Below, piece by piece: positions 26,255 through 60,171 of a DNA stretch of 64,000 bases. Position numbers and translations under genes: made by a program. Numbering within the stretch: position 1 is the first letter of the stretch; every line of letters starts with the position of its first letter. Under the pieces are notes generated by a model that did not search any database, was not told where the DNA came from, and saw nothing but the letters and a program-made list of their open reading frames with translations. The stretch is taken from the NCBI GenBank assembly GCA_963783575.1, contig CAWAOD010000014.1, positions 64,001 through 128,000 on the forward strand, read 5' to 3'. The DNA comes from an uncultured Spirochaetota bacterium. GTDB lineage: Bacteria; Spirochaetota; Brevinematia; Brevinematales; JAOACQ01.

Positions 26255-27489
26255 TCACATCCCGTAATAATAATTCGAGATTACCAGGAGTGCCGGCTTA
26301 ATGATTATCTGTCCTGAAGGGTCGGCGATTATCAGGAATTGCGAAAGCCGCCACTTCTCATAGCTGAAGTTATCGTTATACGTAATTGAATTCTCGATCA
26401 GCACCCTTGGGTCGTATCCCGCTACCATGCCAGCAAAGCTGTTCGTAAAATACTGAAAGAATTTATCGTAAGCGTTGGCCTGGTTCTGGTAGTCCCAGGG
26501 GATGCTTGACAACTCCGCTTCCGTCATATTAAAAATGCTGTTGTCCCAGCCGGCCTGAAGTATATTTGTCGTAGCCAGGAAGACGAACTCCTCGAAGAAT
26601 ATTTTTTTCCCGTATTGCATGACCAACGGCGATAGCATTGAGTACATGTCGTATCCCGGAAATCCAGGGCCGCTATACTCAACGTTTGAATAGAGATAAT
26701 TGGCGGTGTAATCCGCGAACATTCCAGGAAGGCCGGGCCAAGTCGGGTAGAAACTGAGACCGATAAAATCGAGAGCGTCCCAGAAGCCGACAGTGCGAAA
26801 GTCGCTTGGGATAGTCTGATAGAGGCGCACCGATGCGCCATAGGTGAGTTTGCCTGAAAAAATCGTTCGGATTCCGGCGATGATGCCCCTCCATGTGGAA
26901 TCGTTCACACCCCCGGTCAATCCGTCGGCTTCCGTACCGACAGAAAAGATGCTCACCCCATTAGTCTGTGCCATTTGAGCGAAAGAATTCAACTGTGCAG
27001 TGTAGTCAGTAAAGAAATTGCTGATATTAAAGGTCGGATAGGGGGGGAGCTGTAATCGGCAACATTTCCGACACTGGTCGGACCTCCCGGAGCCAGGGGA
27101 TTATAGATCGATGTCATCGGCTTGATCATGACATTAAGATTCTTTTGACTAATAAGTCTGATCACTGGAATAAGATGTTCCGGATGAATGGAGATGTCAC
27201 TACCATAGATCGGCGCAGAATTGAGGTAGTGTCCATTCGTATCGAAGGGAATGTTGTAGGCTATACAGATCGTGTTTGCGCCGCTCGCTTTGGCCAGATC
27301 AATGAGCTTGCCGATGACATTTAGGTTCGATAAACGGTCTCTGGACCACGCATCCAGAACAATGGACTTAACCATTGTTCCTGACTGGGAAATTGTATTG
27401 GTTCCCAGTGAAGAACCTTTATTCATTGAGGGCTGTGGAAAACAACCGGCATATAAAACAGCCAGGAATAGAATTAAAACTTGTTTCAT
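26255..27489 (-). pseudogene. GH113-like (beta-mannanase-type) lipoprotein split by a frameshift in the G7 run at 27041-27047
   Basis: Lipobox YAGC; VMIKP, SVGTE, WRGIIAGIR..GKLTYGA, FWDALDFIG and KIFFEE motifs; one extra base joins the two ORFs; GC-richer than flanks. Confidence 0.7.
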
Positions 27490-28147
27490 AATTACTTCCA
27501 ATCTTAGAATGTCTCTGAGAGTAAATATTTATATAAAGCATGGCAAAGCATATTAATTACTGAAGAAGTTTCATTCTAAAGAGAACTATTTTGAATATGC
27601 AAGCCGAATTCTTTTATATAATTAAAAAAAACCCGGAATCGGTATATAAGCTGTGTTATTTTTTAAGCATAATTGACCATGGCGAGAAAAATGCCTCTGT
27701 CATTTTAATCAAAATAATTTAAATAATGTAAAATGTTAATTTTTTTCTTTTCATCATATTTTACCAAATCGGGGATTTTATTATATTCCTCCATAAAAAA
27801 CTCCAATTTAAGTTATTAATAAGAAAAAATTAAAATCCCACTGGCAGAAATTCTAATCTGCAAGTTAAATATTGTCAAAAAAGGTGTCACTTTCAAAATT
27901 CCCTGTGAGCTTAAGAACGATGGATTGGAAACTTAGTTATAACTTCATAGGTTATTTAGGAAATGAATTTTCTTCTCAATCATATCGCTTTACAAAACCC
28001 GCATAAATGGCGATTTAATATACAATAAATACTTTATTTAGTTGAAATAATTGGAAATAACCGTTATAATCATGTTTTATTATACTGTGTTTTCCAATCG
28101 TAAGGAAACTTGTTATAATAATTGTTTATTGGTTAAAATAAGAATTT

Positions 28148-32028: not shown

Positions 32029-33846
32029 ATGAAGTTAAAAATAAAACTTTTCACTTATGTCATATTATCAGGAGTAGTTTTATTAACAGGGTTAAGCTGT
32101 ATGGCTTCGCCCGGCGGTTCCAGCAACAGCAGCAGTAGTACTTCCAGTACAAGCAATTCATCGTCTTCGACAAATGGTTTGACAGTCACATATAATCCTA
32201 ACTTAGGCGGTTATGGTATAGTGCCATCAGACACAAATTTCTATTTACCCGGGCAAACGGTTAATGTTAAATATCCGGAAGACCTTATGACGGCCTTTAG
32301 CAACGTCAACAACGAAGCCTACTCAGGAAGTGCCCCTAACATGTCCGGAGCTTTTTCAGTGTGGAATACCATGCCAGACGGCAGCGGAACCTCATATAAT
32401 CCGGGTTCGTCATTCAGGATTGGTAGCTCGAATGTAACTCTTTTCGCCATTTGGTCTACAATGCCTGGAAATACAGTAAGTTCATATAATGTAGGCAGTG
32501 TCAGGAATATGGATACACGTGGTGTACTTTCGTCCGTCCCGGGTTCTGTTTAGAGCGGACTTTCAACCGATCCCGCGGACTATCTGCCCCTGCTTGTAAA
32601 TTCGTTAGTTTTGTCAGCTTCCGATCCGCTGATAAAAATGAAGTATATTCATGACTGGATAGCATACAATATATTCTATGACGATGATGCATTAAATTCC
32701 AACTGGTCAAACTATGATCCTTCACCATTCGTGACCCTTTCCAGGATGAAGACAGCCTGTAACGGTTATTCGGCTCTTTTCGCCTCTATGTGCCTCCTTG
32801 CCGGGATAAATGTAGGTTTCGTAGAAGGAGTACCTCTAAATCGGCCAAATCAAACAACGTGCCATACCTGGAACATAGTCCAGATAAACGGGAACTATAT
32901 GTTCGTAGATGTTACTTTTGACTCAAGAAATTATTTCTCGAATAATACTTATTTTACAATCGTTCACGATTCCAGTTATCTTTTCGTTCCTCCGCAGTAT
33001 TTAATACTTGATCATTATCCCTTTTCCCAGTGTTATCAGTGCCTTACTACACCAGAAAGTTATGCTGCATTTAATGCTGCTCCTGCAACTTGTCATGGCT
33101 TATCCAGTCTGAAAAGCACTTTCTATTCGAAAGGTTATACTTTTTCCGGGACCGTTTCAGGAGTTTACCAATCCGGTTCAAGTGGTGCTTCTTTGCAGGT
33201 TTATATACCGGCAGGAACTGTCCCATATGTGGGTGCTGTAACTACATGGACTAACTTTTATGAAAATTGGACTTTTATTTCAAGACAAGGTTTACTAGCG
33301 ACCATACAAATGCTACCGGCTGTTCCGGGTTATGCTACTGTTCAATTGTTTGACAGTTATATAAGCCCTACAAATGTGCTGGCAAATTTCCTTGTTTATG
33401 CAAGCAGTTATTCGGCTACATCTGATCCTTTTCCCTATGAATACGAACCATGTTTTTCAGAAGATTTTTCCCTCACATCTCCGCTTCAGGGAGATCTGAC
33501 GATTGGGTCCTCATACAATTTCGTATATTCAGCCCCGAATGAATATGCTTCCCTGCTTTTTTACTGGAATACAAATAATAGCACCAGTTCAAACAATGGT
33601 GGGATGGAAACGTCCTTAAATGGAACTTATAATTATATCGAAACAGTCATGGCAACACCTTCAGGTTTCGATAGTATATTATATGACTGGCTGTCTGTAA
33701 GTCCTACAAACAGCAGCGGCTCATATATCGGGTACAATATAGTTTCACCGGGGATTGGTTCTGGTTCCGGCCATAGGATAATAAACCCCCACGGTCTCGG
33801 CATTCCAAAGATGCGGGCACAAAGACAGTTTGTGAAAATACCATGA
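32029..33846 (+). pseudogene. Lipoprotein with an InlB-B-like repeat and a transglutaminase-like domain; in-frame TAG at 32551
   Basis: Lipobox GLSC; Ser linker; TVTYNPN..WNT.PDGSGTSY.PG..NVTLFAIW repeat; catalytic triad TACNGYS/HTWN/FVDVT; both ORFs share one frame. Confidence 0.75.
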
Positions 33847-34364
33847 ATTCACAATTACGGGAGTATAGGGAAATGTGAAAAAAGATGTAGAATGTCAAAA
33901 CGCGTTGACTGATTGAGGTTATAGCAATGAGACTGATGAATGAAAATATCAAGGATTAAAATATTAAATAATTAAAGTACCTAGAATGTTTATTATTAAG
34001 AATAATATATAATAATTATTATAATATAAAGAGGTATCTTAGGAGGATTTTAATAAGAAGAATAATTCAAAGTATTAAAGAAAATATGTGTCTTAATATA
34101 TTTGGTTTAATAATGATAGAATTTTCTGTTTTATGCTCATAGTCGTAAAATATTATAATCCGACAAATACTAATAATAGTATGAACATGTACTATGATTG
34201 GTCATTAGATTTGATGCCAACTGGCGCTACATTAATAAGATATAATATTAATTCATGTACAGCTAAATTAGGTAAAAATACTTTTTGATCTCAAGAAATA
34301 ATGCTGGAATAATGAATTACAATGTAAAGACAATAGAAATTAATTCTAATGCGGCTTATTGTCC

Positions 34365-34549
34365 ACAGATAATAAAGTAGTAGAATGAAAAATAATGTTA
34401 TAGATGGCTTTGATTTTACTGGTTTTCATAATTACAGCCGATTATAATAATAATCTATTACAATACTTTGTTTTACATGAAAATAATAACTATTATGGCA
34501 AAAGCTTTATCATCAGTTGGCCATTACACAATATTTTTATATATCAACA
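34365..34549. repeat. About 185-bp imperfect direct repeat, copy 1
   Basis: ACAGATAATAAAGTAGTAGAATGAAAAATAA...GGTTTTCATAATTACAGCCGATTATAATAA...CCATTACACAATATTTTTATAT also found at 35005-35190. Confidence 0.85.
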
Positions 34550-34659
34550 CTATACTCCCATTGGGCCTTCATCTGAGTGTGAATCTGTCAATACCTTAAC
34601 ATGCCCTTACATTACCGATTACGGGGTCCACTATTGCTATAATTAAATCTGAGTGATTA

Positions 34660-34858
34660 CAAATCGTACACAGTGAATCCCATGATTTTCCTAACTATTT
34701 GATATGATATGAATTAGATGAAGAAAGGTATCGGAGAGAGGGGGATTCTGAAAAAATTTGTATTTCTTCTAAGTCCTTAATTATCAAATAGATAGAAACT
34801 TGAACTATAAAAATTTCTTAAAAATACTATACTCAAATCGTACACAATCTGTACACAC
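34660..34858. other. attP-like site: tRNA-Ser 3'-end core flanked by arm-type repeats
   Basis: CGGAGAGAGGGGGATTC (34732-34748) is the reverse complement of a tRNA T-arm/acceptor end; CAAATCGTACACA at 34660 and 34834, plus tandem GTACAC units. Confidence 0.6.
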
Positions 34859-34876
34859 AAATATATTATAATATAT

Positions 34877-34980
34877 GATAAGAACTTAGGCAAAAAATTT
34901 CGATTTGATAGAAAAAGTGCGATAGCTAAAATATAAATCAATAATTCTTCCAATAAAAGGTAAAAAAAAGGGGAAATAAA
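34877..34980. repeat. About 104-bp dispersed repeat, copy 2
   Basis: Near-identical to 8171-8274. Confidence 0.85.
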
Positions 34981-35004
34981 ATAAATTAACATCTACAGGG
35001 CACT

Positions 35005-35190
35005 ACAGATAATAAAGTAGTAGAATGAAAAATAAAGTTCTATATGGAGTTGATTTACAAGGTTTTCATAATTACAGCCGATTATAATAATGATCTATTA
35101 CACAACTATGTTTTACATGAAAATAACAACTATTACGGCAAACGCTTTATCATCAATTGTCCATTACACAATATTTTTATATCTTCAACA
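35005..35190. repeat. About 185-bp imperfect direct repeat, copy 2
   Basis: See 34365-34549. Confidence 0.85.
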
Positions 35191-35333
35191 AATGAAAGCA
35201 CTTTGTAAATTAGAAAATAATAATAAAAGAGTTTATAGCTTAACCTCATTTAAATGGATTATTAGTTTCCTATAGATAACTACTTGGTATTATTTACAAG
35301 AAAGTAGTTTCTTGGGGATTTTTGTCGTCTCTA

Positions 35334-37171
35334 TTAAGTGTCTAATAGATTATCATTTTTTAAAGGAAAGCGAATAACAAATTTTGTTTCCTTTTCTGGG
35401 GTGCTAACGAAAAACATAATACCATTATGTTCTTTTACTATTTGTTGGCAAATTGAAAGTCCTAGACCTGTATTTTTTTTATTAATTTTAGTACTAAAGA
35501 ATGGTTTAAATATTTTTTCCTTTATATCATCCGGTATTCCATAACCATTATCAATAACAAAAATCTCGAAAAACTCTAATTGAGAGTTCTGAGAGATGAT
35601 TATTTTTATCAAACCACCATCTAAAACAGCTTCTATACTATTCGTGATTAAATTTAAAAAAAGCTGTTTAATCCTGTTTTCATCCCCAATAATTTCTGCG
35701 GTTTTAATTTGAAAGTTCTTTTTTAGATTTATTTTCTTTAATGTAAAATTATGATTTAACAGAATAATCACTTCTTCCATTATTTTCACAAGATCAATTT
35801 TGTTTTCAGGAATTTCTTTCATCCGTGAAAATGATAAAAGATTTCCGATGATCTCAACGATCCTGCCTAGTTCTTTTTCAATCTTTAACAATTTTTCCTC
35901 TTCCTTTTTACCAGTAATCTTGCTTTTAAGCAGGATAATGTAATTTTGTATAATGAATAGCGGATTATTGATTTCATGAGCAACACCTACAGCCACCTCC
36001 GCAATAGAAGCCATTTTTTCAGACTGTAAAATATAATTATTAAGGTATCTTGAGATTGAAATATCTTGTATTATCATCACAGAACCTGAGAAGGCATTAT
36101 CATTATCACTTAGTGGAAACACTTCTATTTTCAATATTTTATTTTCACCAAAATGGATATCATCCCAACAATATTTTTCACGTTCCATTATTTTATTTTT
36201 TATTGTTTCCTTAAAACTGATATTAAATTCATCTATAATTTCATTGACGGTTTTATTATTCAAATTGCTTTGTTTTAATTCAAGAATCTCATGTGTCGCA
36301 TAATTTGCTAATTGGATTATATTTTGAGTATCGAAAATAATTACTCCCATTGGAAGATGTTGAATTATATTCTCTATGGACTTTATTATTAGATAAAACT
36401 GGGTGTTCCTTTGCTTTATTTCTTCCTGATTCAATATATATGAATATGTCAATTCAATAAGTCTGTAGTTGTCAAGATCCTTTACATATTCAGTTCCGCG
36501 CCGATAACCGTCTTTTAAAATTGTAACCCTGTCTCCAAGATCCCGTATTTCATCCATATTATGAGTGATATAGATAATACTTTTTCCTGTTTTTTTATAG
36601 TCAAATATAATCTGATAAATTCGTTTCATCTCATCGGGAGTCAGCTTGCTGGAAATCTCATCCAGTATTAGAATACTGGGATTCATAAATAAGACACGAA
36701 CGACTTCTATTATATATTGCTGACGTCCTGGTAATTTATAAAGAGGGATCTTTAGATTAATATTCAGATTAAACTGCTCAATATATTCTTTGCATTTTTT
36801 TAACATTTGATTTCTATGTAAAAAACCAAGAGGATTATTGATTAATTGACCGATAAAAATGTTTTCAACAGAATTTAACTCGGGAATGATGTTTAAATCC
36901 TGATACATCATTCCAATTCCATGTTTTTGAGATGATTTGGGTGTAAAATAATTTATTTGTTTTCCATTTAAAATTATTTCACCCTCTTTTTTTTTATAGC
37001 TCCGCTTAATAATTTTACTAAAGTGGTCTTACCGGCTCTATGCTCGCCGACAAGAGCATGGATTTCTCCCTGATATAAATCAAAATCGACACCTTTCAAA
37101 GCTTTTATATCATTATAAGACACATGTATATTTTTCATATGTAAAATGGGGTTTTGATTTTCGTAGTTCAT
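35334..37171 (-). CDS. ABC-ATPase(NBD)-PAS-histidine kinase fusion (about 612 aa after +1 A in the run at 36987-36995)
   Basis: KALKGVDFDL..GEIHALVGEHRAGKT, YQDL, ILILDE, YITH; PAS (IIQHLPMGVIIFD); AHEINNPL, LNLITNS, DNGYGI, PFFSTK, TGLGL; no TM segment. Confidence 0.85.
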
Positions 37172-38481
37172 TTTATTTGTAATTTCCTCATTTTGTTATA
37201 AAGGGTTTTTCTATTTATATTAAGAAGTTTTGCTGCTTCATTTTTTATACCGTCAGTTTTTTTCAATGCATCCAGAATAATTTCCTTAGTGAAATTTTCA
37301 TAAGATTCAGATAGGTTTTTTTGCTTTGTATTTGTGATTACAGTTTTATATTGATCCGGTAAATTCTCAAAATCGATTATGTCACTAGAACAGAAAATAA
37401 CAGCCCTCTCCTCAAAATTCTGAAGTTCTCTAATATTTCCAGGCCAGCTGTAACTAAGAAGCAACAACTCAACTTTTTCCGATATCTTTTTTACACTTTT
37501 TGAATATACTTTATTGAAATGATTGATGAAATAATTAGTTAGAGGAATAATATCATCACTTCTGTCTCTTAAAGGAGGCAAATTAAGGGTAATAACAGAA
37601 AGCCTGTAATAAAGGTCCTCTCTAAATAAACCCTTTGCAACAATATCCTGGAGGTTTTTGTTAGTTGCCGAAATAATCCTGAAGTCAGCTTTTATTATTT
37701 CCGAACCTCCAAGCCGGGTAAACTGCTTTTCTTGTAAAATACGCAGCATTTTTGCCTGAGTACTTACACTCATATCGCCTATTTCATCTAGAAAAATTGT
37801 CCCATTTCCGGCAAGCTCAAATTTCCCTTTTTTTTGTGTTTTTGCGTCAGTAAATGCTCCTTTTTCATATCCAAATATCTCGCTTTCAAGCAAATTGTCC
37901 GGAATAGCCGCACAGTTGATCTTAATATATGGTAAGTTCTTTCTATTACTGTAATTATGAAGGATATCCGAAATCAATTCTTTGCCTGTCCCGCTTTCAC
38001 CGCTAATAATAACGGAAGCATTTGTTGGGGCAGCCTTTTTTGAAAGTTCCAGAAGAGATATCATATTGGTATTTTGTGTAATCAATTCGTTGTTGTTTAT
38101 TACATCGTGTTTTAAACTCAAAGAAATCGATAAATTCTTTATTTCTTCCAGAAGCTTTGGAATTTTAATAGGTTTTGTGTAAAGATTTAAAGCGCCATAT
38201 TTAATCGATACTACAGCTTCTTCAACCGTGGCATAACCGGAAATTACAATGATTGGTATTGATTTGATCTCACCCTTTATTATTTTTAAAAGTTCGATCC
38301 CGCTAATGTTCGGCATTTTGATATCGATGATGACCAAATCGATCTTATTATTTTTTATGATATCTATAGCATTAAGAGGATTTGTATCATAAAGTGTTGT
38401 AAAACCTTCTGAATTTAATATTTCAGACAATGACAAGCAAACTTCTAATTCGTCATCTAATATTAATATTGTAAATTCCAT
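37168..38481 (-). CDS. Sigma54-dependent NtrC-type response regulator
   Basis: Receiver (LDDE, IDIKMP, KP); AAA+ [28 protein letters not shown]; Fis-type HTH; ATGA overlap with the kinase gene. Confidence 0.95.
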
Positions 38482-38547
38482 GATTTATATTCTAATAAAT
38501 AAATTTCTGGATGTCAAGGGAACCAAATTTTATAGATCCTTTGTTAA

Positions 38548-38600
38548 TTTGGGTAATATTAACCCCAAAATTTAATTTACAATGGGGCGAAAGTTGCACA
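38548..38600. promoter_or_regulatory. Candidate enhancer (UAS) pair for the NtrC-type activator
   Basis: TTTGGGTAATATTAACCCCAAA and TGGGGCGAAAGTTGCACA imperfect palindromes, about 110-160 bp upstream of the sigma54 promoter. Confidence 0.5.
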
Positions 38601-38707
38601 AATATCAATATTATAAAAATTATTATTGGCATTGTTTTATTTATTTAAATTAATATTTTCTTAATTGATAATGAATTGTAAGTTAAAGTAAAAATTATTT
38701 TTAAATA

Positions 38708-38723
38708 TGGTATAAACTTTGCA
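38708..38723 (+). promoter_or_regulatory. Sigma54 (-24/-12) promoter of the sugar ABC operon
   Basis: TGGTATAAACTTTGCA has exact GG-N10-GC spacing. Confidence 0.75.
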
Positions 38724-38847
38724 AACTACTATAGTTATGTTTTTAATTAGAATTATTTACAAATAAATTATAAAATTTATTTTTGATGATAATAAAATAA
38801 CTTTTTAGTTTGTTTTGTTAGCGACTATAAAAATAGGAGGATTTTAA

Positions 38848-39879
38848 ATGACGCGGGATAATGAAACACCAATTATAAGAAAAAGTGGATTTAGTTTATT
38901 AAGTGGAATAATTGCAAGCCCATGGGGAGCAGCATTATTTGCTCTTGTTTTGGTTTTAGCATTAGGTATGGTTTTTAATGCTGATGGTGCTTTTTTCAAA
39001 ATTGGCACACATAGGGATAGTTTAAGACAAGCTTCAGTCTATGGTATTCTTGCTATTGGAATGACGATGGTTATCATTAGCGGTGGTATTGACCTATCGG
39101 TTGGGAGTGTCCTGGGCGCAACCGCTGTTTTGTTTTCTTTGATGAGTATACATTGGGGATGGAATCCAGTAATTTCAATTATACTTTGTTTATTATTTGG
39201 ATCAGCTATCGGTGCAATATCAGGTTCTTTAGTCGCTTTTTTTAAAGTTCAGCCGTTTATTGCCACACTTGCAATGATGTCTTTTGCGCGGGGAATTGCA
39301 AAAATAATCAGCGGAGGAATAAAAGTTTCTACAGTTGTTCCATTGAGTGATGGAACTTTTCGTCAGGCTGATGTTCCTCAGATTTTTAGAATGATTGATT
39401 CAAGAGTATTTGGTGGCAATTTAACAGTCGTGAGTCTTATATTTTTATTCTGTTTAATAATATTTTTTGTGATTTTAAGTTATCACCGCTGGGGAAGACA
39501 GCTTTTTGCTATTGGAGGAAATGAAGAGGCGGCAAGGCTCTCGGGTGTACCTGTTAGATTTACAAAATTAATTGCTTATGTTTCTGGGGGGCTTTTAAGC
39601 GCTGTAGCGGGATTATGCCAGGCAGCTCAGGAACAGCAAGGTGATCCGGAGGCTGGAACGACTTATGAATTGATGGCAATAGCAATGGTAGTTATTGGCG
39701 GTACAAGCTTAATGGGGGGACGGGGGGGGTTAGTTTTAACATTGATAGGGGTCCTGGTAATGGGTTATCTTGACAAAATATTAAGTATAAATGCAGTACC
39801 CGAAGCATGGAGATTTATGCTGACAGGAGTTGTAATTATTTTAGCGGTATTAATTCAAGGTAGAAAGCAAAAATATTGA
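38848..39879 (+). CDS. Monosaccharide ABC permease (RbsC/CUT2 type)
   Basis: GGIDLSVGS, PFIATLA, AIGGNEEAARLSGV, VIGGTSLMGG. Confidence 0.92.
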   Translation: MTRDNETPIIRKSGFSLLSGIIASPWGAALFALVLVLALGMVFNADGAFFKIGTHRDSLRQASVYGILAIGMTMVIISGGIDLSVGSVLGATAVLFSLMSIHWGWNPVISIILCLLFGSAIGAISGSLVAFFKVQPFIATLAMMSFARGIAKIISGGIKVSTVVPLSDGTFRQADVPQIFRMIDSRVFGGNLTVVSLIFLFCLIIFFVILSYHRWGRQLFAIGGNEEAARLSGVPVRFTKLIAYVSGGLLSAVAGLCQAAQEQQGDPEAGTTYELMAIAMVVIGGTSLMGGRGGLVLTLIGVLVMGYLDKILSINAVPEAWRFMLTGVVIILAVLIQGRKQKY

Positions 39880-40025
39880 TTAGATATAAAAAATATAAAT
39901 ATTTTGTTAGGGTTAAATATTAAAAATAGAAAAATAATGTAAGGTTTAATAGTTTAATGGGTTGATATTAAGATCGAAGGAGGGTGTTAATATCAAAGAT
40001 AGGAGAATATATATTAGGAGGAAGC

Positions 40026-40976
40026 ATGAAAAGAGTTTTAAGTATGATTAGGTTGATTGTTGTTGTTAGCTTTGCATTGTTGTTTTCAGCGAGTTTATTT
40101 GGGGCTACAGCTGCTAAAAAGAGTACTTATATTATCGGAATGAGTCAGTGCAATTTAGGTGAACCGTGGCGTGTTCAAATGAATGCAGATGTTAGAAATG
40201 AAGCAGCTAAGTATAAAAACATTAAGGTAATTTATAAGGATGCGCAAAATGATTCATTAAAACAAAGAGCGCATGTTGAAGAATTTATCAGCTCAAAAGT
40301 TGATTTGCTTATTATCAGTCCTAAAGAAGCACAGCCTCTTACTGATCCTGTTGCTAAATGTATCGATGCTGGTATTCCAGTTATCGTTCTTGACCGGGCG
40401 GTTATAGGTGATAAATATACCCAGTTTATTGGCGCTGATAATGTTAAGATCGGTACAGCTCTTGGAAAATGGGTTGTATCAAAATTAGGCGGAAAGAAAG
40501 CGAAAGTTGTGGAATTAGAGGGATTGATGACTTCTACTCCCGGACAGGACAGGCATACCGGGTTTATGAATGCGATCCAAGGTTCTGATATTAACATTAT
40601 TTTTGCCGCGGATTGTGCATGGCTAGAGCCAAATGCGACAAAAGAAATGGAATCAGCTCTTTCCCGCTTTAATCATATTGACCTCGTATACGGTCATAAT
40701 GATCCGTCTGCTCATGGCGCTTATTTAGCGGCTAAAGCTGCCGGCCGTGAAAAAGAGATGATGTTTGTTGGTATTGATTCTCTTCCGCAAGAAGGTGTTG
40801 CATATGTAAAGAGTGGGATTCTTGATGCGACATTCCAATATCCTACAGGTGGTAATATTGCGATTCAGCAGGCATTGAAGATTTTTAATGGCGAACAGGT
40901 AGAAAAGAAAATTGTATTAGGTTCTAGAATGTTTACAAAAGAAAATGTTGCAAGCGGCGGCGAAGCTATAGAATAA
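40026..40976 (+). CDS. Monosaccharide ABC periplasmic binding protein (RbsB-like)
   Basis: ATG 40026 after AGGAGG; signal peptide; GIPVIVLDR, IGADNVKIG, HND. Confidence 0.9.
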   Translation: MKRVLSMIRLIVVVSFALLFSASLFGATAAKKSTYIIGMSQCNLGEPWRVQMNADVRNEAAKYKNIKVIYKDAQNDSLKQRAHVEEFISSKVDLLIISPKEAQPLTDPVAKCIDAGIPVIVLDRAVIGDKYTQFIGADNVKIGTALGKWVVSKLGGKKAKVVELEGLMTSTPGQDRHTGFMNAIQGSDINIIFAADCAWLEPNATKEMESALSRFNHIDLVYGHNDPSAHGAYLAAKAAGREKEMMFVGIDSLPQEGVAYVKSGILDATFQYPTGGNIAIQQALKIFNGEQVEKKIVLGSRMFTKENVASGGEAIE

Positions 40977-41025
40977 AGACGTTTGCTCATAAATATCCTT
41001 TAAGATTCCTCCTTCGATTAACAAT

Positions 41026-41052
41026 AACACCCCGGATTGCCCCCGGGGTGTT
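41026..41052 (+). terminator. Hairpin after the SBP gene
   Basis: AACACCCCGG-ATTGCCC-CCGGGGTGTT. Confidence 0.7.
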
Positions 41053-41333
41053 TAAAATAAAGAATATACATTAGATGCTAATATATTATAATAAATGAAA
41101 TAGTAAGTTTTTTCAAGTTTTAAAGAAGTATTAAAGTATATAAGGTTAAAATGTATTTTTTATGAGGCAAGTTTATATTAAGTTATATAATAATTTTTCT
41201 AATGATGAGCATAATAAGCATATTTTCATGTTTTTATAATGGAATTAAGAAATAATTGAGGAATGTTGAAAGTGTATAGAATAAAAATGATTATAAAAAG
41301 AAATTATACTTTATAAGATTCAACATAAGGAGG

Positions 41334-42858
41334 TTGAAAATGGAGACAGATAAAATTAAAAGTAAAATATTTGAAATTAAGGGATTAAGTAAAAGTTATC
41401 CGGGTGTTTTAGCATTGGACGATGTAAATATATCTTTATATGCCAATGAAATAGTTGCTTTGGTTGGGGAGAACGGGGCTGGGAAATCGACTATGGTTAA
41501 GGTTATTTCCGGAGCCATAAAACAGGATAAGGGAAAAATGTTTATTGAGGATGATATATATGAAATAAATAATCCTATTGATGCAATTAATAAGGGTATT
41601 AGCGTGATTTATCAAGAATTTAACCTGGTGCCCAATTTATCTGTTTCAGAAAATATATTTCTTGGCAGGGAACTGCAAAATTATTTGGGTTTTGTTGATT
41701 ATAAAAAAATGAGAAAAAAAGCTGAAGAACTAATAAAAATTATGGATGTAGCTATTGATGTTAAAAGTTTAGTTGGGTATTTAAGCGTTGCCCAGCAGCA
41801 AATTGTTGAAATAGCTAAAGCATTATCTGTAGACAGTAAAATAATCATTATGGATGAGCCGTCGGCAACCCTCACTCTGGAAGAAATTAGTAATCTTTTT
41901 AGAATTGTAAAGGATTTAAAAAAAGCTGGAAAGACTATTGTCTATATTACTCATCGATTGGAAGAGATATTTGAAATTGCGGACAGAGTAATTGTTTTAA
42001 GGGATGGCAAATTAATTGGTATAAATAAAGCGTCTGACGTTACAAAGCGGAGTTTGATAAAAGATATGGTCGGTAAAGAAATAGAACAGGAATTCCCAAG
42101 AGAATATTTTAATAAAGGAGATACGGTCTTGAGAGTGGAGGATTTTGCATTAGCCGGACTATTTGAGGGCATTAATTTTGAATTAAAGAAGGGAGAAATC
42201 TTCGGTATTTCAGGACTTGTTGGGGCCGGGAAAACAGAATTTGCAAAAGCTATATTCGGTGCTTTTGGTTCTAAGGTAAAAGGTAAAGTGTTATTAAACG
42301 GTAAAGCATTTAGAATAAAAAGTCCATATACTTCTATTAGACAGGGTCTTGGATTGGTTGTTGAAGACAGGAAAAATGAAGGTTTGGTGATGACAATGAG
42401 CATAAAAAATAATATAACTCTAACCAATTTAAAAAAAATATCTAACGGGTTCTTTATTAGTAATAAAAAAGAAGATGCTGAAGTTAATAAATTTGTTAAA
42501 AGTGTTAGAATAAAGGTGTATGATATTAATAGAGGAGTAAAAGAATTAAGTGGAGGCAACCAGCAGAAGGTATGTTTAAGTAAATGGTTATATTCAGATG
42601 TAAAAATTATGATATTTGATGAACCCACAAGGGGCATTGATGTTGGGGCTAAACATTGAGATTTATCTGTTATTAAATGAACTGGTTAAAAACGGTATTG
42701 GAGTTATTATCATAAGTTCAGAATTAGAAGAAATAATAGGTTTATGTGATAGAGTTATGGTATTATATGAAAGAAAAATGAATAAGATAATTGATAGAAA
42801 TGATAAAAATAGTTTTATCAAAGAAGAGATTATGAGATTGGCGACTGGTGGGCATTAG
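41334..42858 (+). CDS. Monosaccharide ABC ATPase (RbsA-like, two NBDs); apparent frameshift near 42655
   Basis: GENGAGKS, IMDEPSA, YITH, LSGGNQQK, FDEPTRGIDVGAK, then EIYLLLNEL..ISSELEE in the shifted frame. Confidence 0.9.
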
Positions 42859-42905
42859 GAGTTTGAAAATGTTTTAAAACAGATAAGCTTTGCTTCTATA
42901 AAAAT

Positions 42906-43087
42906 ATGGATGAGTTTATTGAGGAAATTTCACATAAGATTATACCGGCATTAACGGCAGAGGGGAAGAAATCCCTATAGGTGAGTCCGGAATCGCGGTA
43001 TTGGACTGGCTGAATGGAAGAAGGATCCCCGACGACAACCAAGCTTTGAAACGCGCAATAACCGGTTTGAATCTCGGAAGTGAGTGA
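42906..43087 (+). pseudogene. araB: Internal fragment of a ribulokinase
   Basis: Translates to IPIGESGIAVLDWLNGRRIPDDNQALKRAITGLNLGS, matching the AraB DWLNGRRTP..N..LKGAI.GL.L motif. Confidence 0.75.
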
Positions 43088-43150
43088 TAGCATTGAAAAA
43101 GACTATAGAATATAAGCATTTTACAGTTAAAGGTATAGACAGTAATATTT

Positions 43151-45061
43151 ATGTTGAAAATTTTTAAAAAACTTCCCATTCTTTTAGTACCAATAATCTT
43201 ATTATCGGTTGCTCTTAATTTTATCTTTTTATCCCGGGAAGGATTGGGTAATCTGTATTACGCTGCGGCAATTAAGAGTATGCTGACAAGTTTTAAGAAT
43301 TTTTTCTTTGTTTCCTTTGATCCGGCGGGATTTGTCTCTGTAGATAAACCTCCTTTGGGGCTTTGGATTCAGGCATTATTTGCTTTATTGTTCAGATTGA
43401 GAGGCATTTCTCTCATATTGCCCCAGGCTATTGCGGGAGTTTTATCTGTATTTTTCCTGTATGTTTTAATAAATGATATTTTTGATGAAAGAGCAGGTTT
43501 AATTTCAGCTTTTGTTTTAGCAATAACACCGATTTTTGTCGCATTAAGCAGGAATAACACAATGGATATGCAGGTAGTCCTCATTATTATTCTTGCAACG
43601 CTCGCCTTTTTTCAGGCGATTCAAAAAAAATCGTTTAAATATCTTCTATTCACTTTTATTTTAATCGGTTTAGGATTTAATATAAAAATGCTTTTGGCTT
43701 TTATAATCCTGCCGGCTGTCGGTATAGTATGGTTATTAAACCGGCATATTCCCATAAAAAAAAGATTAATGCAAATTACCACTGCAGGATTAGTTCTCCT
43801 GGTTGTTTCTTTAAGCTGGATTTCAATTGTGGAGCTTTACCCCAAAGAAAACAGGCCGTATATCGGTTCCACAGAAAATAACTCCGCATTTGAGCTTGCT
43901 TTCTCCTACAACGGACTCTTAAGAATAGCATCACCCTTTTATAATTATAAAAAACAGTTTCCTTCATCTTCTTTTTATTCTTTTGCACCCGGCGGAGTTC
44001 CTTTAGAATTGGGTGAAACCGGTGCACCCGGTATTCTAAGGCTTTTTAATAAAGAGTTAGCTGGGCAGATAAGCTGGTTTTTCCCGATTATTTTTATAGG
44101 ATTATTTCTTTTATTCATGGATATTAATAACAAATCCGGTGCTGATATAAAAAAACTTTCAATTCTATATTGGTTTTTATGGCTGATTCCCTATTCTTTT
44201 TATCTTAGCTTTACAACAGGAATTTTTCATCGCTATTATGTAGCAGCTTTAGCTCCTCCAATAGCAGCTCTTTGTGGTGTAATTTCAACGTGGCTTTGGG
44301 ATTTATACTCCAGTAATGAGGAATCCGGATTTTTATTTCCGGCCGCTATTTTTCTTACCGGACTTCTTCAATTTTATATTATTAACAATGAAAATTATGG
44401 CATCCCAAAATATTCCGGATTTATAATTTTGATAATTGTTTCCGTAATTTCGACTCTTTTGATTTTAAAAAAATTATCGGTCAGACTTATAAATAAATTA
44501 CCGGATAGGTTTTTATATATACCTGTTATACTTGTTCTTTGTGCTGCGCCTTTTTACTGGGCCTGTACCCCTCTGGTTTACGGCGGAAATTTTGTCCTGC
44601 CCTATGCCTCCCCGGAATTATCAAATGATATAGCAAAAGGCGCCAATTTTATAAAAAATGATCAAATCCGGGCATATTGGATTAAGCCGTTGTATGATTT
44701 TCTTGCAAAAAATAGAAATAACGAAAAGTATCTCGCTGCGGTTCCCAGTGTTTACGCTTATGCAGTGCTATTGATTTTATTCAATGAAAATAAAAATATT
44801 CCTGTAATGGCAGTTGGCGGTTTTGCGGGCAAAGACCCGGTAATAAATCTGGAAGAGTTAAAAAAATACATCAAGGATGGAGATATACGCTTTTTCCTGG
44901 TTCCCTCTTTTCTCGAACACTCGAAGGAAAAAGGAAACATGCAATTATACCAATGGGTAATTGAGCATGGAAAATTAGTGGATAAGAAGTTGTGGAATGA
45001 TTACTATATACCCAATCTCTTTATTCCTGATTCATTGGACCTATATGATTTAAAAATATAA
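43151..45061 (+). CDS. GT39/ArnT-like polytopic glycosyltransferase (YkcB-like)
   Basis: YYAAAIKSM..FDPAGFVSVDKPP, SRNNTMD, GFNIKML, HRYY, VMAVGGF.G.DP; many TMs. Confidence 0.85.
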   Translation: MLKIFKKLPILLVPIILLSVALNFIFLSREGLGNLYYAAAIKSMLTSFKNFFFVSFDPAGFVSVDKPPLGLWIQALFALLFRLRGISLILPQAIAGVLSVFFLYVLINDIFDERAGLISAFVLAITPIFVALSRNNTMDMQVVLIIILATLAFFQAIQKKSFKYLLFTFILIGLGFNIKMLLAFIILPAVGIVWLLNRHIPIKKRLMQITTAGLVLLVVSLSWISIVELYPKENRPYIGSTENNSAFELAFSYNGLLRIASPFYNYKKQFPSSSFYSFAPGGVPLELGETGAPGILRLFNKELAGQISWFFPIIFIGLFLLFMDINNKSGADIKKLSILYWFLWLIPYSFYLSFTTGIFHRYYVAALAPPIAALCGVISTWLWDLYSSNEESGFLFPAAIFLTGLLQFYIINNENYGIPKYSGFIILIIVSVISTLLILKKLSVRLINKLPDRFLYIPVILVLCAAPFYWACTPLVYGGNFVLPYASPELSNDIAKGANFIKNDQIRAYWIKPLYDFLAKNRNNEKYLAAVPSVYAYAVLLILFNENKNIPVMAVGGFAGKDPVINLEELKKYIKDGDIRFFLVPSFLEHSKEKGNMQLYQWVIEHGKLVDKKLWNDYYIPNLFIPDSLDLYDLKI

Positions 45062-47105: not shown

Positions 47106-48923
47106 ATGTCTAAAGCCATTGGTTTCGGTAAGGTTCAACCGGTAAACAGGTTGAATGGTTCAATGCCCAGGATAGGAATCAGACCGGTTATTGACGGGCG
47201 CAGAAAAGGTGTGAGAGAATCACTGGAAAAACAAACTCTTTATATGGCTAAAAGAGTAGCAAAAGTACTGGAAGAGGAATTAAGACATTCAAACGGTCTA
47301 CCTGTGGAATGTGTGATTACGGATATTATAGGCGGGGGAGCAGAAGCAGCTAGGGCAGCGGAACTATTCGCAAGAGAGAGAGTTGGTGTATCTATTTCAG
47401 TTACTCCCTGCTGGTGTTATGGAACTGAAACGATCGACATGGATCCTTTCCTGCCGAAAGCAATATGGGGCTTTAACGGTACTGAAAGACCCGGCGCAGT
47501 TTATCTGGCTGCGGCTTTAGCCGGCCATGACCAGAAAGGGCTTCCGGCTTTCGGAATATATGGGAGAGATGTACAGGATGCCGGAGACAATAAAATACCG
47601 GACGATGTAAAAGAAAAATTGCTGAAATTCACTAAAGCGGCGCTGGCTGTTGCTACAATCCGGGGCAAATCCTATCTTTCCATGGGAAGCGTGTCCATGG
47701 GGATTACCGGTTCGACGGTGAACCCGGATTTTTTCCAGGATTATCTTGGAATGCGTAACGAATATATCGATATGTCGGAATTCATCCGCAGGATTGATGA
47801 AGGAATTTTTGATAAAGAGGAATTTGAAAAAGCAATACAATGGGTCAAAAAATACTGCAAGGAAGGCAAAGATTTAAATCCAAAAGAAATCCAAACATCA
47901 AGAAAGAAAAAGGACCAGGATTGGGAAACGGTTGTAAAAATGAGTATGATCGCCAGGGACTTGATGACAGGGAATAAAAAATTAGCTGAACTCGGGTTCG
48001 GTGAAGAAGCTGAAGGGCATAATGCCATAATTTCCGGTTTCCAGGGTCAGCGTCAATGGACAGACCATTTTCCGAATGGCGATTTTATGGAGGCTATTCT
48101 CAATTCGTCATTCGATTGGAACGGAATAAGGGAGCCTTATCTTATTGCGACTGAAAATGATAGTCTTAATGGAATCGCAATGCTGTTCGGACACTTAATC
48201 TCAAAGTCTGCATCGATTTTTGCAGATGTAAGGACTTTCTGGAGCCCTGAATCGGTAAAAAGGGTCACCGGTAAGGCTTTAACCGGAAAAGCTGCAAATG
48301 GATTAATCCATTTGATTAATTCCGGCTCCGCGGCACTCGATGGAACGGGTGAACAGAAAGAAAACGGGAAATCCGTGATGAAGCCATTCTGGCATATCTC
48401 TCCCGATGAGGCAGAAAAATGCCTGAATGCTACAACCTGGATGCCTGCAGATGTCGGTTACTTCAGAGGTGGTGGTTTTTCATCCTGCTTTATCACAAAA
48501 TCAGAAATGCCCGTCACTATGATTCGAGTAAATTTAATCAAAGGTCTTGGCCCTGTATTTCAGATCGCTGAAGGCTATACAATTAATTTACCCAATGATA
48601 TTCATAGTATTTTGGATAAAAGAACCAATCCAACCTGGCCTACAACTTGGTTTGCACCAAATTTAACCGGAACGGGAGCTTTTAAAGACGTTTATTCCGT
48701 TATGAATTCCTGGGGAGCGAACCATGGAGCCATTAATTTTGGACATGTCGGCGGGGAATTGATAGCACTTGCTTCAATGCTTCGAATCCCTGTTTCCATG
48801 CATAATGTTCCCGAAGAAAATATTTTCCGTCCAAAAGCCTGGATGGCATTTGGAACAGCAGATCTGGAAAGCGCCGATTTCAGGTCCTGTAAGAATTTTG
48901 GGCCTCTGTACGGCCTTAAATAA
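47106..48923 (+). CDS. fucI: L-fucose/D-arabinose isomerase
   Basis: [44 protein letters not shown]. Confidence 0.96.
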
Positions 48924-55944: not shown

Positions 55945-56712
55945 CGTTGCGTCAAAAAAAAAGGTACTCAAAATTGTATCGTTGCTTCATAAATAAAACC
56001 TACTCCAAATTTATTATCTGAATCATACTTTTTTTTACGGATATTCCATAATTTTCTTTGATATTGCGATATCCTTTTTCTAAGATCATATTAATCCAAT
56101 CCTTCATGAACTTTTTTCAACTTACCCTTTCTTTTAGCAGAGATAGCCGGATGTTCCATTAATCTCTGGCAAGGCGTTTTTATATCATTTGTTTCTTTCT
56201 GACTTTACTACCAATCCTTTCTTTTTCAGTCAACTTCATCACTGGTAGAAAATGGTTAGTATAAAGACGAAGAGACGTGTAGAGTTCATTCAAAATAATA
56301 ACTTCTTTTTCCGTATCATATCGTAAATAACCCACAGTTTTCCGGACTACAGAATAGTTTTTTGTTCTATATAACAGTTGTCATTGGACCTTGTGCTTCG
56401 CCCTCTGGTAAACTTGATGCTGTGTTCCTCACAAAATTTTTTCAAATGATGATTGATGAATTCAGCTCCTGTATCTGAATCCAACCCTAAAATCTGAAAC
56501 GGAAGCTGACCAATAACATTTTCAATGCCCTCTTTCGTCCAGATAGCGGCTTTGTTCTTTATGGCAAAAGTTTCTGTCCAGCCGCTGCATACATCTACCA
56601 TATCCAACGTCTGGGCAAAATCACCCTGACTATTACCGCCTTCATGGCCGACAAGGTCTATCTCCATAAAGCCAGGCATATTTGCATCCCAATCCGGGGG
56701 AAAGTTTACCAT
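55945..56712 (-). mobile_element. 5'-truncated, frameshifted integrase-core (ISNCY-like) transposase with its right end
   Basis: PGFMEIDLVGHEGG, DSDTGAEFIN, NDNCYIEQK(N); repeated end motif CGTTGC(G/T)TCA at 55945 and 55980. Confidence 0.75.
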
Positions 56713-58463: not shown

Positions 58464-60171
58464 CCCAAACTGAGCGATTTTTTAATAAATACCAAAAACA
58501 GGTTTATAAAAGCCAAAATTTATAAAAATTTGGATATATTTTTTTGTCACCGGTTAATTTGCCGAATTTATGCGTTTGAAAGCACTAAAATCATCAATCT
58601 CTGAGATATTTTCAATTTTTGGCGCAATACCCCCTTATTAATCCATGAAAACAGAGCGCATCTTTAAATCGGGGTAACCGTTCCGCATTTCTCCCACAAA
58701 TCTAACAATTTAAACCTGTCAACTACTTCTTCCCTGAATTTTAAAATAGCCCGCCCGCCTGTTTTAACAATCTTTCCCGCAATATCAATAAATATTCGCC
58801 TGACCGTATCCGGATAACTTTCCACTGGTATTTCCGGTATATCCATATCCGCCTGATAAGCCGACAGCAGATTATACGCTATTATCGATAAAAAATAATA
58901 TACACCGTTTGATACAAAACTCTTAAACGGCAGTGTTTCATCCACGAATTCTTTTATTCCACGGTTCACCAGTTCATCTTTTGCCCTCAGATGATAGAGC
59001 CTCACTATTTCCTCTGCCGTCATATATTTCACAAGCCCCTTTTCTTTCAATACTTCCGCTTCTTCAAGATTTGTATAAATAATATTTTCAGGCCTGTCGA
59101 ACGCTAATCTGAAAACCCCGTCTTCACATTCATATTTGGTATAAATGGCACGGTATCCCTTTTCCCAGCTATCCCGTCTGTCCCGAAAGTCCAGGTATTC
59201 AATTACATCTCCTTTTTTCTCAAACCTTCTCCATTCTTCCGGCAATCGCTTCATCAAATCGAGTTTGATTGAATCCAGTATTCTCCCGCCGCATATAAAG
59301 AACAGTTTCAGGTCTTCCAGCTTCTTAAAATACTTTTGGTCAAAAAACCCGCTATCAGACACAACGATAATCGGCACCTCTTTGTCATAGCATTTCCGGA
59401 TTTCCTTCACTGTTTCTTCCAGCATTGTAAACAGATCGTCACCGTGATTCGGGGATTCGCTTCCTTCGTGGAACGCCAGGTTCACGATAAAACCATTCCA
59501 ATACATATGCAGCGGATGATACCCGTTAACCTTTTTGTAGGTATAAGTCACGCCGTTTCGCTTTTTAGCGTCATCATTATTCAGTACCATCGTATCAAGT
59601 CCGAGAATAATAACTTTCGGGTTCTTTATCTTGAGACGCCAGACAAAAAGCTTAATTAGAATCTTTTGAAGCTCTTTAAACATTGTCTTTTTTACCACTG
59701 AAAAAATCTCTTTATCACATGGGATGAGCACATATTGTCTTTGCTGCATTCAATGGCCTTTCTGTGCCCGATATCATTTGCCAATTCATCAAACCGGGTC
59801 ATGGTAAATTTGCTTCCATCTATGAAAAACAGCATCAATTGAGAAATAATTTTTTCTATATCTTTACCTTTGCGGCTCTTGCGAATTCCCTGAAATACTT
59901 CGCTGATCAGGGGAATAACTTTAATATTCTTGAGATATCTCAGGACAAACGTAAGCCCGCCGCGGCTGGTAAGACAATCTTTCGTTATGCCGATTTTTTG
60001 AATCTCATTTCCCTGAATTTTGCGATTTTTATTTTTTTCAGTCATAATTTACCTGCTTTTGCACCCAATGGGTGTTATTCCGGGGTAAGGATGGCTGTAA
60101 CCATTTCCTTACCCCATTTTATTTTGGCATGGTTTTATTTTTATGGATAGTTAAGAATCGCTCAGTTTAGG
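58464..60171 (-). mobile_element. Full-length IS1380-family element (1708 bp)
   Basis: IRs CCCAAACTGAGCGATT / AATCGCTCAGTTTAGG; 5-bp TSD TATGT at 58459-58463 and 60172-60176. Confidence 0.92.
58664..60045 (-). pseudogene. IS1380 DDE transposase split by a frameshift in the A6 run at 59701-59706
   Basis: LTSRGGL, LGLDT, GYHPL, VSDSGFF, YHLRAKDELVNRGIKE; one extra base joins the two ORFs. Confidence 0.88.

Follow-up and report, generated by a model that had tools for sequence, protein, structure and literature searches.

Transporters that double as sensors are a recurrent theme, as in the Bce, Pst, Mal and DctA-DcuS systems, and the fleeting nature of the contacts makes it difficult to follow how a transport state is relayed to a signalling protein. 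In Escherichia coli, MalK, the ATPase subunit of a sugar ATP-binding cassette (ABC) importer, conveys the state of the transporter to the transcription activator MalT; it remains a transporter subunit and uses an additional C-terminal domain to sequester MalT, with no phosphorelay. In the BceAB-BceRS systems of Bacillota, a histidine kinase senses by way of an ABC transporter and the system switches on the genes of that transporter, and in PstSCAB-PhoU-PhoR the state of an importer is relayed to a histidine kinase that sets the expression of a regulon, both as outlined in passages of PMC6978683. In CbrA and CrbS, an SLC5 transporter domain is fused covalently to the sensor kinase, according to the abstracts of PMC7096432 and PMC5715377. 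Here we describe a locus from an uncultured Spirochaetota bacterium (contig CAWAOD010000014.1) in which the nucleotide-binding domain (NBD) of an ABC transporter is fused to a histidine kinase, encoded beside an NtrC-type regulator and a CUT2 sugar importer.

The locus occupies positions 35334-42858 of the window, that is, the whole stretch of 64,000 nucleotides that was analysed, and consists of two divergent gene groups, the regulator and kinase genes on the minus strand and the CUT2 operon on the plus strand. The NBD-kinase observation is confirmed, and the fusion is genuine, not an assembly chimera. The kinase gene reads as follows.

36974-37171, minus strand: 5' fragment of the NBD-kinase gene, 65 amino acids (aa), with the first strand and Walker A GEHRAGKT (Pfam ABC_tran profile 1-37/137, E 4.8e-8)
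36987-36995, minus strand: run of 9 A (T on the plus strand), site of the frame shift (homologue alignment)
35334-36911, minus strand: main open reading frame (ORF) of the NBD-kinase, 525 aa (Pfam)

The encoded architecture is an ABC NBD followed by PAS, HisKA and HATPase_c domains. The 525-aa ORF holds the C-terminal half of ABC_tran (profile 64-135/137), linker helices, PAS at 180-284, HisKA at 309-365 and HATPase_c at 409-518 (profile 1-110/111, E 9.1e-24). The H-box, HEINNPL, is invariant in our homologue alignment (A1), and its histidine in the dimerisation and histidine phosphotransfer (DHp) domain, together with the complete HATPase_c domain, marks the protein as a class I (HisKA) histidine kinase with predicted kinase activity. 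No transmembrane segment was found in the kinase, the highest Kyte-Doolittle 19-residue mean being 1.47, on the Walker B strand. The original prediction, made from the DNA letters, had described a soluble kinase of this domain order with its NBD-to-kinase junction inside the uninterrupted ORF 35334-36911, and both points are borne out: Pfam places ABC_tran and PAS, and hence the NBD-to-PAS junction, within the same 525-aa ORF. The four RbsA-type NBD motifs that it had also listed are found. The Q-loop (MMYQD), Walker B (ILILDE) and H-loop (YITHN) are all present in the 525-aa ORF, and the Walker A GEHRAGKT fits GxxGxGK[ST] as a variant with His and Arg for the usual Asn and Gly; the ABC signature LSGGQ, however, is replaced by a degenerate LPGRQQ, to which no attention had been drawn. 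Residues 1-52 of the homologue P0002 align in frame -1 (37138-36983, 75% identity) and residues 42-593 in frame -3 (37016-35361, 58% identity), so that the kinase gene carries a single frameshift, within the 9-A run at 36987-36995. Ten A instead of nine would give GAIKKKEGEIILNG, the frame of all homologues.

Homologue counts refer to the best 120 homologues listed in a word-indexed protein search with the kinase ORF. More than 100 proteins of 594-632 aa carry precomputed PF00005, PAS, HisKA and HATPase_c domains at 47-58% identity to the window ORF, of which they cover 96-99% (98-99% for nearly all), and the closest, of 596-609 aa, are 57-58% identical over 98% of the 525-aa ORF. A lack of homologues with this architecture had been named beforehand as grounds for giving up the prediction; among the best 120 that were listed, 116 have full length (580 aa or more). 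Because the NBD-PAS junction lies within one ORF and the same architecture is found in these 116 of 120 homologues, a chimera is excluded. Their named sources are mostly Spirochaetia, Treponemataceae or Spirochaetales metagenome-assembled genomes, and the proteins are called either 'ATP-binding cassette domain-containing protein' or 'AtoS'. Among 401 sampled genomes of the phylum, 18 have a match at E up to 1e-40, and matches that span the NBD occur in about a dozen genomes from several families; in 10 other sampled genomes of the bacterium's own family, no NBD-spanning match was found. The family is widespread and apparently unstudied: a full-text literature search, with subscription journals mostly outside its coverage, returned no description of an ABC-NBD-histidine kinase fusion.

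Structural comparison resolves the same two halves. A structure model of the intact homologue from locus L003 (603 aa) has a mean predicted local distance difference test score (pLDDT) of 79.5; its NBD, residues 1-232, is confident (block pLDDT mostly 85-94), and beyond it lie two linker helices, PAS, a DHp hairpin and the catalytic and ATP-binding (CA) domain. Foldseek matched the NBD half to the solved ABC NBDs 1ji0 (TMt 0.83) and 6mbn (0.84), and the kinase half to the PAS-kinases 4gcz and 9jfj. No NCBIfam model reaches its cut-off for the window's NBD-kinase. The top scores for the NBD half come from the N-terminal halves of AraG, YtfR, RbsA, AlsA and XylG (about 3-240 of models of about 500 residues), and the top named model for the PAS-kinase half is AtoS (205 bits, profile 271-610/616, cut-off 646). 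In a PDB sequence search, the top match to the kinase core was the cytoplasmic domain of ZraS.

The origin of the input domain was traced in a tree of 62 NBDs, comprising 23 from kinases and 20 N-terminal and 19 C-terminal NBDs from neighbouring CUT2 ATPases. All those from kinases fall into a single clade (SH-aLRT 99) inside the N-terminal group, with the C-terminal NBDs as outgroup and a support of 100 for the split between the two types; the NBD of the window's kinase branches with the N-terminal ones. Two subclades are seen, A with Walker A GEHR, which includes the window, and B with GEHG. On this phylogeny, the kinase NBD is a descendant of the N-terminal NBD of a CUT2 (RbsA-type) ATPase. 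Comparison of the motifs indicates that its degenerate signature is inherited from the N-terminal NBDs: those of neighbouring CUT2 ATPases (n=20) read L-S-[VI]-[AG]-Q-Q, which is also non-canonical, and close homologues of the kinase read L-[TSP]-x-x-Q-Q, in which the commonest residues per column are never S-G-G. The Walker A Lys, Q-loop Gln and Walker B Asp are each kept in 23/23 kinases, the catalytic Glu in 19/23 and the H-loop His in 14/23, while the counts within the window's subclade are Lys 116/116, Gln 116/116, Asp-Glu 116/116 and His 115/116. This census suggests that ATP binding and the Q-loop are needed family-wide and that hydrolysis is dispensable in part of the family.

The same genome holds further copies. 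An intact second module (G000:C2:14699-16549; L116:9199-11049) encodes a kinase of 616 aa, with an NtrC-type regulator and a CUT2 operon, in whose NBD the catalytic Glu is replaced by Ser and the H-loop His by Asn. A third (G000:C3 about 33750-35200; L124:9750-11198), likewise with an NtrC-type regulator and a CUT2 operon, is broken, with four stops in the kinase and RbsA split into 304 + 189 aa. A candidate fourth paralogue, L125 (G000:C5), matched over the kinase core only and was left out of all counts.

The genome also encodes an NBD on a different output. An NBD-AraC fusion of 361 aa (G000:C2:29362-30447; L146:5363-6448, minus strand) joins ABC_tran (30 bits, cut-off 25) to an AraC-type helix-turn-helix (HTH), and its gene lies directly upstream of another CUT2 operon, in the order binding protein-RbsA-permease. 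This NBD has lost the Walker A, the Walker B Asp-Glu and the H-loop His, and has kept the Q-loop Gln and the ENIF segment. The Q-loop of ABC transporters is located at the interface between NBD and membrane domain. As the Q-loop/ENIF part survives the loss of ATP chemistry, what survives is the part expected to touch the permease.

The regulator gene and the intergenic region that separates it from the permease gene (38482-38847, 366 bp) carry the following features.

37168-38481, minus strand: NtrC/AtoC-type sigma-54-dependent response regulator, 437 aa (Pfam)
38489-38517, minus strand: sigma-70-like promoter TTGACA-17-TAGAAT, directly 5' of the regulator gene (motif match only)
38583-38598, plus strand: sigma-54 -24/-12-like motif TGGGGCGAAAGTTGCA (motif match only)
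38708-38723, plus strand: sigma-54 -24/-12-like motif TGGTATAAACTTTGCA, 125 nt 5' of the permease start (motif match, with counterparts in related loci)

Pfam resolves the regulator into Response_reg (5-114), Sigma54_activat (133-299), AAA_lid_14 and HTH_8 (396-434); its top NCBIfam model is AtoC, at 409.7 bits and under the cut-off of 714, and it reads GAFTDA where the GAFTGA loop is expected. The regulator TGA overlaps the kinase ATG in an ATGA stop/start, in agreement with the predicted coupling of an NtrC-type regulator to the kinase. The receiver domain, AAA+ sigma-54 interaction domain and Fis-type HTH, with rpoN in the same genome (G000:C16:93388-93852, 192 bits) and -24/-12 motifs that mark a predicted promoter, place the system in the NtrC family of sigma-54 activators. 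The TTGACA-17-TAGAAT sequence is the top consensus match within 33800-43300 (11/12 positions). Two TGG-N8-TTGCW motifs lie on the plus strand of 38482-38847, facing the permease gene, and loci related to the window have TGGCAC/T-N5-TTGCW at the place equivalent to TGGTATAAACTTTGCA. Over the whole window TGG-N8-TTGCW is not enriched (6 found against 4.4 expected; 30/100 shuffles reach 6), so the signal lies in the position of the motifs only. The intergenic repeats are many, AT-rich and imperfect, no convincing activator-binding palindrome was found among them, and Rfam gave zero matches in 33000-43500 at E up to 0.1.

The plus-strand group contains the transporter genes.

38848-39879, plus strand: CUT2 permease, RbsC-like, 343 aa (Pfam BPD_transp_2, E 4e-49)
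39984-40976, plus strand: periplasmic sugar-binding protein (Pfam Peripla_BP_4, E 7.3e-48)
41026-41052, no strand assigned: G+C-rich hairpin, 11 pairs, between the binding-protein and ATPase genes
41334-42659, plus strand: RbsA-type tandem-NBD ATPase, first 441 aa (Pfam ABC_tran, 2 stretches; NCBIfam RbsA profile 3-431/501)
42616-42858, plus strand: 3' fragment of the RbsA-type ATPase gene, in the other frame (L119 RbsA alignment)

A BPD_transp_2 permease, a Peripla_BP_4 binding protein and a tandem-NBD ATPase together identify a CUT2 importer (TC 3.A.1.2). For its substrate, all NCBIfam equivalogs score under cut-off: the top models are ribose permease for the permease, and RbsB and YtfQ for the binding protein. 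The permease is 61% identical to that of locus L001, and the binding protein likely starts at the ATG at 40026 (MKRVLSM..., signal-peptide-like). The ATPase carries GENGAGKST, LSVAQQQ, IMDEPS and ITH in its N-terminal NBD and GLVGAGKTE and LSGGNQQ in its C-terminal NBD. Residues 6-434 of the L119 RbsA align in frame +3 (41367-42656) and residues 424-495 in frame +1 (42625-42849), which reflects one extra base (T) near 42656-42657 (cat-t-gag), outside any long homopolymer. The divergent permease, binding-protein and separate ATPase genes of the original prediction are therefore present, but it had overlooked that the ATPase gene is frameshifted. The gap between the binding-protein and ATPase genes is 357 nt, and the hairpin at 41026-41052 could raise binding-protein mRNA relative to the distal gene or end part of the transcripts; the order permease, gap, ATPase also occurs in L129 and L133-L135. 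An L-fucose isomerase gene with all three Pfam domains (47106-48923) lies 4 kb 3' of the operon, beyond a PMT_2 glycosyltransferase gene and a beta-lactamase-fold gene, and may hint at the sugar handled nearby. The ATPase groups with the ATPases of clade-B loci and the permease is nearest that of L001; a mosaic operon was considered on these grounds and dropped.

The regulatory wiring was assessed across related loci. Genome collections yielded 24 loci, and exclusion of L125 left 23 loci with 24 NBD-kinase genes. A pattern scan of the collections with alignment A1 gave 80 loci, from which only the NBD-covering L001-L006 and L009 were used; one of the two A1 patterns is a generic H-box, so 73/80 are ordinary kinases. 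The synteny with NtrC and CUT2 genes that had been singled out for checking is tight, and the refuting case of homologues unlinked to ABC transporters does not apply: an NtrC-type gene lies directly upstream of, and on the same strand as, 23/24 kinase genes, the 24th (L122) running off its contig, and CUT2 ATPase and/or permease genes lie beside 22/23 loci. Metagenomes added 12 loci with 13 kinase genes. The regulator is upstream of 12/13, the remaining contig being 1.9 kb long, and CUT2 genes are present in 9/12, the other three contigs (1.9-7.7 kb) ending a short way 5' of the regulator gene. A strict -24/-12 motif, mostly TGGCAC/T-N5-TTGCW, lies in the gap between the regulatory and transporter genes and faces the transporter in 15/22 transporter-bearing loci; both strands of the 379,294 bases scanned gave 36 matches in all. 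Eight gaps were annotated with Pfam, and in these the motif is followed first by the binding-protein gene. With rpoN in the genome and the facing motifs in the window, these counts agree with the sigma-54 control that had been proposed for the transporter operon. Synteny and the motif census together lend good support to a wiring in which the activator acts at a predicted sigma-54 promoter that drives the CUT2 operon, and we consider this wiring, as read from gene order and motifs, highly probable. In L111 and L122, single-NBD ATPases of 262-281 aa stand in place of the tandem RbsA. Two regulator-NBD-kinase modules, each with its own CUT2 operon, lie side by side in L003 (divergent) and L136 (tandem).

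Whether the copy in the window is alive is a question separate from that of mechanism, and its probability is not additive with those of the other alternatives. The window fusion could be an assembly artefact, or the whole locus a dead remnant, and we give this a considerable chance, though one clearly short of even. Several observations count against a live copy. One frameshift lies in the kinase gene and one in the ATPase gene; the G+C contents of the kinase (0.288) and regulator (0.320) genes are low beside the genome's 0.374, the first percentile of 5-kb windows being 0.283; and the window kinase deviates at 6 of 122 columns conserved in at least 95% of homologues, where the median homologue deviates at 1 and only 5/116 at 6 or more. 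The broken C3 module of the same genome, with its interrupted kinase and split ATPase, and the draft state of the genome (18 contigs, 89.85% complete) point the same way. On the other side, the chimera is excluded by the junction inside one ORF and by 116/120 homologues; each gene has one shift only, and the kinase gene is short of a single base in its 9-A run, the kind of slip that assemblies often make; every catalytic motif is intact; and the genome is not riddled with insertions and deletions, with intact ORFs of up to 6309 aa and most window genes covering their Pfam profiles end to end. Five of the six kinase deviations are conservative changes. Two frameshifts mean that the copy is either mis-assembled at two bases or recently inactivated, and three findings to which the original prediction had not drawn attention (the frameshifted ATPase, the AT-rich kinase and regulator genes and the degenerate signature) mean that it may be inactive; we judge inactivation somewhat less probable than continued function.

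Runs of A or T in the genome number 1415 at exactly 8, 241 at 9, 21 at 10 and none at 11; this fall-off could be natural, or the assembly could have called long runs too short, a point relevant to the 9-A frameshift. The closest orthologue in the genome collections, L109, shares 65% identity with the window in the regulator and 60% in the kinase core, and lies in DNA with a G+C content of 0.27. This low value, together with the absence of an NBD-spanning match from the 10 sampled family genomes, makes acquisition from a lower-G+C spirochaete a possibility, judged by composition and distribution. Other parts of the window hold an IS21-type pair, IstB + rve integrase (8446-10751), an rve fragment of 121 aa (56347-56712) and a DDE_Tnp_1_4 transposase that lacks the first 117 profile positions (58664-59749). 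At 26255-27501, a 245-aa ORF that covers only GH113 profile positions 117-190/289 overlaps by 4 nt a 170-aa ORF with no family, and this may be another broken or diverged gene. Directly 3' of the kinase gene, 33950-35333 (1.4 kb, G+C 0.26) has no ORF >80 aa and no Rfam match, and possibly represents the remains of decayed genes.

For the mechanism, we propose that the regulator-kinase operon would be expressed constitutively and that the soluble kinase and the sigma-54 activator would switch on the adjacent CUT2 operon from its sigma-54 promoter. The only input modules of the kinase are PAS and the single N-terminal NBD. A kinase dimer would offer two ATP-binding NBDs for docking on the importer, and the likeliest contact would be between the Q-loop face of the NBDs and the coupling helices of the permease dimer. 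Docking of the liganded binding protein, or the transport cycle, would drive closure or opening of the NBD pair, and this motion would pass through the helical linker and PAS to the DHp/CA core, whose state would set phosphorylation of the activator, so that the transporter would induce its own synthesis. Taken as a whole, with module, wiring, docking mechanism and the state of this copy together, we regard this explanation as evenly balanced between right and wrong; docking of the NBD on the permease dimer, taken by itself, falls only a little below an even chance.

The docking step was addressed by a complex prediction with 2 copies of the L001 permease and the NBD (residues 1-252) of the cognate L001 kinase. 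The score was 0.58, the best of 3 controls reached 0.00, and the verdict was 'weak support', at a mark that is reached by 116/157 solved complexes and 2/215 mismatched pairs. Contact agreement between runs was at least 90%, and the pLDDT of the partner was at least 77. NBD residue conservation, the NBD-AraC fusion and this prediction, read together, favour permease docking over a pure ATP sensor. The original prediction had the transporter induce itself through kinase NBDs that dock in place of RbsA and had called for the permease dimer to be modelled with the NBD; its wiring is supported, and its docking step is one that we infer from the modelling score and the conserved NBD residues.

A number of points weigh against docking. 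The complex prediction returned no interface, and scores of 0.60 or below were given by only 18/157 solved complexes and by both mismatched pairs that pass. A PDB sequence search with the permease gave no match at E up to 0.001; the permease therefore has no solved relative by sequence, and no solved CUT2 complex is at hand for mapping an interface. Complexes of NBDs with membrane domains have been solved for other ABC families, so the pass may reflect a general likeness. Every complete locus has its own full ATPase, with which the kinase would have to compete for the permease, and a homodimer of N-type NBDs would have no canonical LSGGQ at either ATP site, which might weaken closure driven by ATP. 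The kinases also show two changes of their own: the Walker A Asn is His in 21/23, and the DEP proline after Walker B, kept in 20/20 RbsA N-terminal NBDs, is lost in 23/23. In L120, there are no CUT2 genes within about 9 kb, and a LacI regulator, an FGGY kinase, an aldolase and an L-arabinose isomerase are encoded downstream. Finally, the PAS domain could be the true ligand sensor.

A more general reading, which we put forward tentatively and hold to be rather doubtful, is that the CUT2 N-terminal NBD is a portable 'transporter-reading' sensor domain, attached to a kinase or an AraC output. It would occupy the ATPase site on some permease dimers and so form dedicated signalling complexes, in which docking of the liganded binding protein would be turned into kinase activity or DNA binding, with no cytoplasmic ligand.

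Among the alternatives for the mechanism, the one that survives best, though we think it unlikely, is that the NBD senses cytoplasmic ATP/ADP (energy state) or acts as an ATP-driven dimerisation switch and never touches the transporter, the genetic linkage only mirroring the regulated target. The kinase is soluble, ATP-dependent dimerisation is established for ABC NBDs, and the Walker A Lys and Walker B Asp are universal, in 23/23 kinases and 116/116 close homologues. An energy sensor, however, need not descend from the transporter class that it regulates or stay beside it, and the degenerate signature weakens an ATP sandwich dimer. The NBD-AraC fusion, moreover, has no ATP-binding motifs and still keeps the Q-loop/ENIF segment and the CUT2 neighbourhood.

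Still less probable, in our view, is that the kinase NBD pairs with the transporter's own ATPase, for example to report free versus engaged RbsA, or with single-NBD ATPases. In its favour, the N-type NBD has no canonical signature, which in RbsA comes from the C-terminal NBD (LSGGNQQ in the window's ATPase), and L111 and L122 encode single-NBD ATPases. In tandem-NBD ATPases, however, both NBDs are already paired within one chain, and the segment kept in the ATP-dead NBD-AraC fusion is the Q-loop and the start of the helical subdomain, which disfavours NBD-NBD pairing; in ABC transporters this segment faces the membrane domain and not the partner NBD. That the kinase is an alternative motor, whose NBD pair energises transport through the permease while phosphorylation merely accompanies it, is very improbable: the window's subclade keeps all hydrolysis residues, and in the window the gene for the dedicated ATPase is disrupted and sits at the end of the operon, after the hairpin, but the H-loop His is lost in 9/23 kinases and the catalytic Glu in 4/23, nearly all complete loci have a complete separate ATPase, and the homodimer has no canonical signature motif.

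In the NBD-kinase family, the link between transporter and signalling is hard-wired, with an ABC motor domain and a kinase core in one polypeptide. If the NBD docks on the permease, the family would provide a tractable system for studying the coupling of NBD closure to a downstream conformational output, and a layout from nature for sugar biosensors in which an extracellular ligand is read by way of a binding protein. Should the portable-sensor reading be true, it would represent a covalent solution to transporter co-sensing, which to our knowledge has so far been known only between separate proteins. There is also a consequence for annotation, as the proteins carry generic or 'AtoS' names and no NCBIfam model matches them at its cut-off. 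The present analysis contributes the single-clade origin in N-terminal NBDs, the census that parts ATP binding from hydrolysis, the promoter census, the NBD-AraC fusion check and the controlled complex prediction.

Compared with the systems described at the outset, the window module is like BceAB-BceRS in its transporter-as-sensor logic and its self-induction, and the resemblance is one of logic only. Bce has a resistance pump as its transporter, a separate kinase embedded in the membrane and a regulator of OmpR type, whereas the window has an NBD fused covalently to a soluble PAS kinase that lacks the two transmembrane helices of the Bce type, together with a binding-protein-dependent CUT2 importer and a sigma-54 activator. 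PstSCAB-PhoU-PhoR needs the PhoU adaptor and a membrane-anchored kinase and keeps its NBD (PstB) separate, in contrast to the soluble window kinase with its fused NBD; a Pfam scan of 11 ORFs from the locus and its flanks found no PhoU-family protein, the genome beyond them not having been searched for PhoU. In contrast to MalK-MalT, the NBD no longer belongs to a transporter and instead forms the input domain of a kinase. CbrA also has an NtrC-type activator, CbrB, as its partner, but the fused part of CbrA and CrbS is the membrane permease of a secondary symporter, whereas the window kinase carries the soluble ATPase domain of a primary ABC importer and therefore still needs contact with a separate permease.

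By sequence score, the nearest named relatives of the signalling half are AtoS-AtoC, the best-scoring named models for the PAS-kinase half and the regulator, with all scores far under the curated cut-offs (646, 714), and ZraS-ZraR, in that the ZraS cytoplasmic domain is the nearest PDB sequence for the window kinase core; both AtoS and ZraS are kinases that sit in the membrane, sense on the periplasmic side and lack an NBD. The input domain shares its profile match, its clade and its non-canonical signature with the N-terminal NBDs of the CUT2 ATPases (RbsA, AraG, XylG, YtfR, AlsA, MglA), but it is a single NBD with no C-terminal partner NBD, fused to PAS-HisKA-HATPase_c. The module is thus a conserved, uncharacterised two-component module that belongs to none of the Bce, Pst, Mal and CbrA/CrbS systems.

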